A DNA stretch of 64,000 nucleotides from Escherichia coli (GTDB lineage: Bacteria; Pseudomonadota; Gammaproteobacteria; Enterobacterales; Enterobacteriaceae), in assembly GCF_001677475.2 (NCBI RefSeq), contig NZ_CP015229.1; one strand, written 5' to 3'. Positions 25,338 through 26,052 of the stretch are shown piece after piece. The notes beneath the pieces were generated by a model. That model saw only the letters and a list, made by a program, of their open reading frames with translations, was not told the DNA's origin and ran no database searches. The position numbers and the translations under genes are program-made. How positions within the stretch are numbered: the first letter of the stretch is position 1; each line of letters begins with the position of its first letter.

Positions 25338-25637
25338 TTAATCATCTGATTTACCCAGCCCGTACCGGATTACCGTACAGTGAGCGCCATCGCTACCGAT
25401 ACGCACATCAAAGCGGGGTTCGCGCACTTTCACGCGGTACAGGATCCCATCATTTACCATAGCGTTTAACGTTCGTCGGGTTGCCTCTATGTGGTATCGC
25501 TGATATTCGGAACCATAGAGCAGCAATGTAACACCACGAACATCAAATGGTGGTTCTCCAGCCTCCACCCGCACCCAATCGCGATACTCAGGTTTGTAAA
25601 GTTCAAGAATCTGTTTTTTGTGCCTGGTCATTCTCAT
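25338..25637 (-). CDS. hypothetical 99-aa protein
   Basis: ATG with AAGGAA SD (MRMTRHKKQILELYKPEYRDW...); ORF track extends upstream to 25766. Confidence 0.5.
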   Translation of the reverse strand: MRMTRHKKQILELYKPEYRDWVRVEAGEPPFDVRGVTLLLYGSEYQRYHIEATRRTLNAMVNDGILYRVKVREPRFDVRIGSDGAHCTVIRYGLGKSDD

Positions 25638-25743
25638 GTGTGATTCCTTATTGTGGGACAGTACTGTCATACAATAAGCTATGAGGGAAATTATCAAAAG
25701 AACGGAAACCAACCATTCAGATTTAACAGGTATCAATGGGATT

Positions 25744-26052
25744 ATGCTTATGGTGCATGATGACAAAGCGGAAGAACTGGAAGCGAAAGGTTTATGGCGA
25801 CGGGCGGCTAATCGCTGGGGTGAGTTACTGAAACAGGCGGCAAGTGATGAAGCGCGTCAGTATGTAACGGAACGACGAACGGCATGCATCCGGAAGGCAA
25901 CCATAACCCGGGAACCGGAAAGAGACCTGATTTGCGCCATAAGAACCGCCGCCACAAAAACACTAACGGATATGGGGATCGACCTGAAAAAAGAAGATCC
26001 ACTGCGGGGCATTCAGCACGGACATACAAAGCAGGATAAACGCAGGAAGTAA
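25744..26052 (+). CDS. PerC-family-like transcriptional activator (tentative)
   Basis: MVHDDKAEELEAKGLWRRAANRWGELL... resembles the PerC/Pch N-terminal signature as recalled; start uncertain (25744 or 25750). Confidence 0.45.
   Translation: MLMVHDDKAEELEAKGLWRRAANRWGELLKQAASDEARQYVTERRTACIRKATITREPERDLICAIRTAATKTLTDMGIDLKKEDPLRGIQHGHTKQDKRRK

Follow-up and report, generated by a model that had tools for sequence, protein, structure and literature searches.

A divergent gene pair at the end of a genomic island

We analyzed a 64,000-nucleotide stretch of Escherichia coli DNA (contig NZ_CP015229.1), referred to here as the window, and focused on two small divergent genes at the 3' end of a genomic island within it. 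The minus-strand gene encodes a 99-amino-acid (aa) protein, and the plus-strand gene encodes a PerC-like protein. The 112 bp between them (25638-25749) contain a 32-bp imperfect dyad, a candidate operator-promoter of the 99-aa gene (Table 1). An initial annotation had already placed here a 99-aa gene preceded by AAGGAA, which is present as described in the sequence and in the list of open reading frames (ORFs), and a perfect 12-bp palindrome in an intergenic region given as ~100 bp, which we also found. It had put the pair at the 3' end of an island, and two att repeats indeed bound the island. The same 99-aa ORF is annotated by RefSeq in homologous islands, and the sequence AAGGA follows the dyad in most homologous loci.

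A PerC gene of the window type adjoins the 99-aa gene in 12 of 12 IMG/VR loci, and the same divergent layout is found in an island of E. coli O157:H7 (between yicC and dinD), although the PerC and 99-aa proteins there are only 58% and 51% identical, respectively, to those of the window. A 1-kb segment with both genes recurs, at 90-98% identity, in 48 genomes, where it occupies two insertion sites and at least three different satellite backbones. The two divergent genes are thus a recurring unit, the terminal accessory module of the island.

When the window was compared with two related islands (L008 and L009), synonymous divergence (dS) was ~0.37 for the 99-aa gene, ~8 times that of the PerC-like gene (~0.04) in the same island pairs. 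A gap of this size between neighboring genes implies that recombination has left a boundary within or close to the intergenic region. In the O157:H7 island between yicC and dinD (strain Vac_07.1, locus L083, 11487-13166), three PerC-family genes, one of them a 55-aa fragment, surround the winged-helix gene.

Table 1. Features of the gene pair, its intergenic region, and the surrounding island (positions in the window)
Feature	Position	Strand	Comment
99-aa gene	25338-25637	-	Start ATG, complement 'cat' at 25635-25637
Shine-Dalgarno sequence AAGGAA of the 99-aa gene (plus-strand ttcctt)	25644-25649	-	6 nt (25638-25643) from the ATG; overlaps the dyad by 3 nt
32-bp imperfect dyad CTTATTGTGGGACAGT/ACTGTCATACAATAAG	25647-25678	.	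Candidate operator-promoter of the 99-aa gene, putatively shared with the PerC-like gene
Perfect 12-bp palindrome GACAGTACTGTC	25657-25668	.	Inner arms and center of the dyad
-10-like hexamer TACAAT facing the PerC-like gene	25670-25675	+	Inside a dyad arm; putative promoter element
PerC-like gene, 100 aa	25750-26052	+	In-frame alternative ATGs at 25744 and 25681
tRNA-Pro(GGG)	15540-15616		Island insertion site
attL, 17-bp direct repeat CTCTCGTGCCGACCAAA	15602-15618		At the 3' end of tRNA-Pro
Integrase	15807-17066		Beside tRNA-Pro
DUF4222 gene (RgdR homologue)	19114-19413	+	Just upstream of the primase gene
93-aa phrog_1561 gene	24933-25214	+	PHROG E = 1.3e-55; convergent with the 99-aa gene
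attR, second copy of CTCTCGTGCCGACCAAA	26597-26613		Right boundary of the island

The 99-aa protein belongs to an unnamed family with a predicted winged-helix fold

Searches with the single sequence and with profiles returned nothing informative for the 99-aa protein in Pfam, PHROGs, NCBIfam, PADLOC, or the PDB sequences. There was no Pfam match to the window protein even at E ≤ 10, and only 1 or 2 of 22 relatives gave weak Pfam matches (HVO_A0114, PaaX, MarR_2, and TrmB), which do not place the protein in any named winged helix-turn-helix (wHTH) family. A profile search of the PDB found nothing relevant, and fold searches of AFDB50 and BFVD found only uncharacterized relatives. Those in AFDB, all labeled 'uncharacterized', come from Escherichia, Shigella, Yersinia, Erwinia, Enterobacter, Edwardsiella, and Sodalis. 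The ORF is nevertheless a real gene, because the ratio of nonsynonymous to synonymous divergence (dN/dS) is low (0.12-0.22 against alleles with the dS of ~0.37 given above) and because the family comprises 17 close clusters, with 50 representatives down to ~35% identity.

AlphaFold2, supplied with a 22-sequence alignment, predicted four helices followed by a beta-hairpin, with a predicted local distance difference test score (pLDDT) of 81 (72-81 over five models). The predicted structure thus has the helix-turn-helix and beta-hairpin wing of an ArsR/MarR-like fold. The most conserved segment of the protein is the predicted recognition helix, E[AS]TRRTL.[AS]MV, and the isoelectric point is 9.4. 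We take the product to be, as modeled, a winged-helix protein, small and basic, whose unnamed family is carried by Enterobacterales mobile elements. The earlier statement that it has no recognizable family holds for sequence matching and fails for the predicted fold.

Many homologues are longer (115-135 aa) and end in a conserved C-terminal D.IEGE tail, which the window protein does not have. The acidic tail motif common to longer members (P0018, P0022, P0024, P0037, P0045, P0048, and P0055) reads D-x-[IF]-[ED]-G-E-[CFY]; several close E. coli alleles also lack it and end in unrelated short tails. We considered whether the 99-aa protein could be RgdR and rejected this, as BLASTP against ECs1581 gave E = 1.1 and the true RgdR homologue (65% identical) is the DUF4222 gene elsewhere in the island.

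For the locus search, alignments A1 and A3 served, the broad alignment A2 being too divergent. On satellites, family members are typically the last gene, inverted relative to the island body and convergent with phrog_1561 or TerS-like genes, and what lies upstream of them is unrelated sequence, an att site, or the integrase of a neighboring element. Members also occupy accessory positions in prophages, and Klebsiella phage ZX1 has one in its early region. In EcCIMP1, the terminal gene is a family member (WP_032286879.1, E. coli MP1 3,565,919-3,566,278) that lies 211 bp from the mapped island end at 3,565,708; the EcCIMP1 paper makes no mention of WP_032286879.1. Sakai Sp7 ends with ECs1599, a phrog_1561 homologue, and has neither the 99-aa gene nor the dyad, so the 99-aa gene is an optional terminal module.

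The dyad is conserved and travels with the 99-aa gene

The 12-bp palindrome had been noted between the two genes in the initial annotation. It is indeed perfect, but it is not unusual by itself, as the window contains 22 perfect 12-bp palindromes against 15.6 expected and GACAGTACTGTC alone is not significant. The relevant element is the 32-bp dyad around it, which is tied to the 99-aa gene. The dyad is symmetric at 14 of 16 positions; the window holds just this one, where 0.017 would be expected.

Its consensus is CTTATTGTAKGATAGNNCTATCCCACAATAAGGA. Nearly all family members have the element directly upstream, and it keeps a fixed register just 5' of the start codon even where the homologues share only 42-66% identity, which means that the DNA element is better conserved than the protein. 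Sequence beyond the dyad on the outer flank is unrelated between loci. Half of the columns (16 of 32) do not vary across 29 distinct versions, and 85% of the cells are paired, compared with 24-47% in slid controls. Conservation is stronger in the left half than in the right inner arm. Five pair positions are invariant, and compensatory or double changes are seen in only 2 of 14. The main signal in the dyad is sequence conservation rather than pairing as such.

A pattern scan of IMG/VR gave 54 matches, one per contig, which were directly followed by an MRxT ORF (45 matches) or by decayed remnants of it (5 matches) or were due to chance (4 matches). The dyad is strictly linked to the 99-aa family gene. 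We found it in no sequenced phage, and there was no second copy in the window or in any matching IMG/VR contig.

Protein and site also vary together. The inner arms of most relatives read GATAG..CTATC and accompany a recognition helix of sequence ESTRRTLE, whereas the window clade has GACAG..CTGTC, changed on both sides, together with EATRRTLN. In more divergent lineages, where the recognition helix is altered, this place is taken by other dyads, namely, TGTAGC-N10-GCTACA in L004 and two tandem copies of TTAATGTACAA-N7-TTGTACATTAA in L006. The hexamer TACAAT is invariant in PerC-paired loci, with the conserved block TCATACAATAAGC, and the PerC strand has no other good -10-like hexamer.

It is conceivable, though in our estimation very unlikely, that the dyad acts as RNA, forming a hairpin in the 5' untranslated region that would mask the ribosome-binding site and so keep translation of the 99-aa gene low. 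Its 3' arm overlaps AAGGAA, the predicted minimum free energy is -14 kcal/mol, and two pair positions show compensatory or G-U changes. The fold is not exceptional, however, with a z-score of only -1.75 and 10 of 200 shuffled sequences folding as well, and most versions carry the internal A.C and U.C mismatches. Six of the 29 versions have half-changed arms (A.A or U.U), and the two tandem copies in L006 are typical of operators. A hairpin would also need both arms to be transcribed, and there is no conserved promoter upstream. A scan of 24800-26750 against Rfam brought no family near threshold. A cos site was a further candidate for the dyad and was ruled out, the exact lambda cosN being at 24172-24183.

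A candidate autoregulatory operator-promoter

The reading that we favor, with a probability of about 0.5, is that the 99-aa protein binds the dyad and represses its own transcription and that the dyad also gates the PerC-like gene. The winged-helix protein would bind, probably as a dimer, the 32-bp dyad abutting its own ribosome-binding site, and binding would repress transcription of the 99-aa gene itself. Because TACAAT lies inside a dyad arm and the dyad lies between the divergent genes, a single binding event would control the PerC-like gene as well in the window island and its relatives. Autoregulation is supported, by comparison of sequences, by the conserved recognition helix, the linkage between dyad and gene, the kept symmetry of the dyad, the co-variation of protein and site, and the conserved pairing with PerC. 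It is probably an ordinary self-regulating switch.

Several points weigh against this reading. A consensus promoter scan called no sigma-70 promoter in the intergenic region, TACAAT included, and of the internal arrangements, the best (TTATTG-N16-CACAAT/TACAAT) is weak in its -35 element. Conservation differs between the halves of the dyad, and at two positions asymmetry prevails (A.C in 24 of 29 versions and T.C in 15 of 29), so a promoter fits about as well as a symmetric operator. Most loci have no PerC gene upstream, and control of PerC therefore cannot be the general role of the family. Finally, a regulator whose sole recognizable site is its own promoter has no evident output.

Alternatively, the dyad may be no more than a compact promoter, possibly working in both directions, or may be bound by a protein of the host or the helper phage, with the 99-aa protein acting elsewhere or through protein-protein contacts, which we consider doubtful. 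Such a promoter would be in keeping with the excess of conservation over compensatory change described above, with the better-conserved left half, and with arms that read TTATTG-N16-(C/T)ACAAT in both directions, and the conserved tail of many homologues suggests partner binding, although this tail is missing from the window protein. However, the -35 element matches at only 2 of 6 positions, and the dyad travels strictly with the gene and changes with its recognition helix. To our knowledge, the dyad resembles no LexA, CI, or Fur box, which also counts against this alternative.

The 99-aa protein might also be a trans regulator with its main targets outside the module and autoregulation only as a side feature. 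These targets could be helper-phage promoters, leading to interference or superinfection immunity of the kind reported for EcCIMP1, or host genes. The family sits at satellite and prophage ends, the usual place of lysogen-expressed genes; EcCIMP1, with its homologue close to the island end, gives unexplained superinfection immunity against its helper; and the homologue in phage ZX1 lies in the early region. Nevertheless, no other copy of the site was found in the window, in any IMG/VR contig, or among sequenced phages, which leaves a role in trans (for example, in EcCIMP1 immunity) unsupported, and we judge it rather unlikely. A more far-reaching proposal, to us a long shot, is that the 99-aa protein and the dyad make up a so far unrecognized control cassette, with a real function in trans, that moves among the satellites and prophages of Enterobacterales. 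In one version, it would be the superinfection-immunity determinant of EcCIMP1. In another, it would be the repressor half of a two-protein switch, with the PerC-like protein as anti-silencer, that times the expression of satellite terminal genes and neighboring host genes.

The PerC-like protein

The plus-strand gene had been described as a PerC/Pch-like gene of ~102 aa. A profile search, suggested at the time as a check on the family, matched PF06069 with E = 1.1e-22 and 80.6 bits over model positions 1-82 of 90. The alignment begins at the Met encoded at 25750, so the family stands and the length does not; the 102-aa version starts at 25744, while the start at 25750 supported by Pfam and RefSeq gives 100 aa. 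RefSeq names the homologues 'PerC family transcriptional regulator' (WP_001360810.1, start at 25750), and the PHROG matches (994, 10396, and 1324) are to 'transcriptional activator' families. The protein is 51% identical to PchE (Sakai Sp7/OI-51) and 40% identical to EcCIMP1_025, in addition to the 58% noted above for the PerC protein of the yicC-dinD island. In an alignment with six other PerC-family proteins, including EcCIMP1_025 (PchE was compared pairwise), D4, A7, L10, E11, G14, L15, R17-A20, R22, and W23 are invariant. The dN/dS ratio of the gene is about 0-0.1. With this profile match, membership of the plus-strand gene in the PerC family is secure. A weak signal to the ANR family (NF033650) reached 19 bits (E = 9e-4) against an NCBIfam cutoff of 32, which falls short of membership.

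The initial annotation went on to propose that the PerC-like protein activates chromosomal virulence loci, of which the enterocyte effacement locus (LEE) is considered here, and that the pair serves cross-talk between island and host. We think this unlikely. Family membership speaks for it, as do the effects of PICI-borne regulators (RgdR and some PerC homologues; PICI, phage-inducible chromosomal island) on the LEE (PMC3378721, PMC6092414) and the presence of a near-identical module in LEE-positive serotypes such as O145:H28. It has already been published that E. coli PICIs carry PerC/Pch genes, which may engage in cross-talk with the LEE (PMC6092414, PMC11773190). However, PerC relatives vary in their activity on LEE1 and include activators (PerC itself), inert proteins, and repressors (PMC11773190), and the nearest tested relatives fall among the last two. 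EcCIMP1_025 represses LEE1 (PMC11773190), and the PICI-borne PerC-like proteins of EcCIEDL933 and EcCICFT073 are reported in the same paper, which cites Porter 2005, to have no effect on LEE1 fusions (PMC11773190). 'Activator of chromosomal virulence loci' is hence not a safe inference. Also against it are the occurrence of the module in strains from wild animals and poultry, the below-cutoff ANR-like signal, and the fact that no LEE is visible within the 64-kb window. We take the PerC-like protein to be a small PerC/Pch-type regulator that, by family precedent, would modulate the transcription of AT-rich horizontally acquired genes, and not necessarily as an activator.

The island is a phage satellite

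The island is ~11 kb long, its att repeats lie 11 kb apart, and it is flanked by yejM and yejO. The E. coli backbone around it is 99% identical to the best-matching genomes. Its gene order begins with the integrase, an Icd-like region, the DUF4222 gene, the primase gene, a fragment of a single-stranded DNA-binding protein (SSB) gene, a lambda-E-like major capsid gene, and a decoration gene, and it continues with an AlpA-like gene, a TerS-like gene (DUF1441/phrog_57), and the 93-aa phrog_1561 gene, followed by the 99-aa/PerC-like pair. RefSeq homologues have the same layout. An exact copy of the 12-nt lambda/phi80 cosN, GGGCGGCGACCT, is found at 24172-24183 (+) between the AlpA-like and TerS-like (DUF1441) genes, just 5' of the latter. 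This suggests packaging by a lambda-like cos helper, as demonstrated for EcCICFT073, which undergoes cos-type packaging (PMC6092414). The island combines a tRNA att site, an integrase, an AlpA-type regulator, a primase, a packaging hijack gene, a cos site, and a size within the 10-20 kb used to define PICIs, and it has no full set of virion genes. Judged by this content, it is a phage satellite of the Gram-negative, cos-type PICI class inserted at tRNA-Pro. Excision and transfer dependent on a helper phage have been shown for EcCICFT073 and EcCIMP1 (PMC6092414, PMC11773190).

Parts of the island are matched in 2,337 of 5,426 complete E. coli genomes, and at least 80% of it is covered in only 5 of the 5,426, which shows that it is a mosaic. 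The phrog_1561 gene, whose product shares 82% identity with ECs1599, the gene that closes Sakai Sp7, is a common penultimate gene of these satellites and a neighbor of the 99-aa family in many loci.

The position of the 99-aa gene brings up one more possibility, that its product is a recombination directionality factor (a winged helix of the Xis/Cox/TorI type) that works on the att site close by. The gene encodes a small winged-helix protein, stands across the island from the integrase, and would lie beside attP once the island had circularized, and TorI of KplE1 sits similarly, at the end opposite its integrase. We regard this as highly improbable. There is no match to an excisionase family in PHROGs or Pfam, and the conserved site is an inverted repeat at the start codon and promoter of the gene itself rather than a set of direct repeats in an att arm. 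Moreover, ~920 bp, including the PerC gene, separate this site from attR, and the island already has AlpA-type genes; excision of EcCIMP1 depends on alpA and int. Repression of its own gene remains the role that we prefer for the 99-aa protein.

Some further features of the island were noted. A second AlpA/excisionase-like gene, which is long (127 aa, phrog_2790; 23732-24115, +), lies between the decoration gene and cos, far from the integrase, and recalls the 'unusual alpA_1' of EcCIMP1, which aids helper-phage excision. The SSB-like ORF (21745-22044, +) is 99 aa long and matches only the center of the PHROG SSB profile; it is probably truncated, the SSB genes of related islands being 140-150 aa. 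The product of the DUF4222 gene (19114-19413), with its 65% identity to ECs1581, has PGD in place of the functionally important RGD at residues 20-22, and it carries A10, R45, and R61, as in variants discussed previously (PMC3378721).

Between the convergent 93-aa and 99-aa genes (25236-25332) there are three AT-centered palindromic motifs TGNAAATTTNCANTCTG, one of which is a perfect 18-mer, GAATGTAAATTTACATTC. TGNAAATTTNCANTCTG has seven strand-matches in the window against 0.61 expected; six are these three motifs read on both strands, and one lies outside the island at 4507. Related motifs of the type GCAAAATTGC are found downstream of ECs1599 in Sakai Sp7. Between the PerC-like gene and attR there is a perfect (GGCT)x11.5 tetranucleotide microsatellite (26164-26209), and the closest E. 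coli relatives part from the window sequence just before it, at ~26096. Among related elements, a Logan contig (L002; ERR11507397, 1-12378) holds a satellite with a primase, a ClpP-capsid fusion, DUF1441, and a 125-aa member of the 99-aa family. It abuts lambda-like head genes, with a terminase gene that looks cut (GpA_nuclease only), and may be a satellite embedded in its helper.

Significance and relation to known systems

PICIs are very common in E. coli, and their small regulators (RgdR and Pch/PerC) are known to reach host virulence regulation. The PerC half of the module is already known biology, and its main lesson is one of caution, in that not every PICI-borne PerC homologue should be annotated as a LEE activator. 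The 99-aa family with its candidate operator gives a useful annotation and a testable lead, although the kind of system is an ordinary one. A candidate DNA site is now defined for this unannotated winged-helix family, which is also represented in the experimentally tractable EcCIMP1, which offers a cheap and testable handle on the role of PICI terminal genes. Current understanding is not overturned.

Close parallels for the proposed switch are the DNA-binding domains of ArsR/SmtB, MarR, and Fur proteins, small autoregulated winged-helix repressors that act on dyad operators over their own promoters. Unlike these, the 99-aa protein belongs to no wHTH family in Pfam or NCBIfam, has no ligand- or metal-binding or dimerization domain, and is confined to mobile elements. 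Its 32-bp site, with outer and inner arms, also exceeds a typical single-dimer site. Lambda Xis, P2 Cox, and KplE1 TorI are likewise small winged-helix proteins on integrative elements. RgdR (ECs1581, DUF4222) is, like the 99-aa protein, 99 aa long, basic, and PICI-borne, and it had 'no similarity to known proteins' when first described (PMC3378721), but the two sequences are unrelated.

The PerC-like protein shares with the PerC/Pch family (PerC of enteropathogenic E. coli and PchA-E of enterohemorrhagic E. coli) a length of 90-100 aa, the N-terminal motif KAExLExKGLxRRAAxRW, and carriage on phage satellites. It differs from PchE and EcCIMP1_025 as a distinct subfamily with a C-terminal MGIDxKKEDPLRG tail, and its gene stands at the island end, paired with a winged-helix gene, whereas pchE (ECs1588) comes after ssb in Sp7. 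Another close counterpart of the 99-aa protein is WP_032286879.1 of EcCIMP1. This protein is 119 aa long with a C-terminal tail, and the PerC gene there is 1.1 kb away rather than adjacent, but it belongs to the same family, has the same upstream dyad, and is likewise encoded by the last, inverted gene of an experimentally functional PICI.
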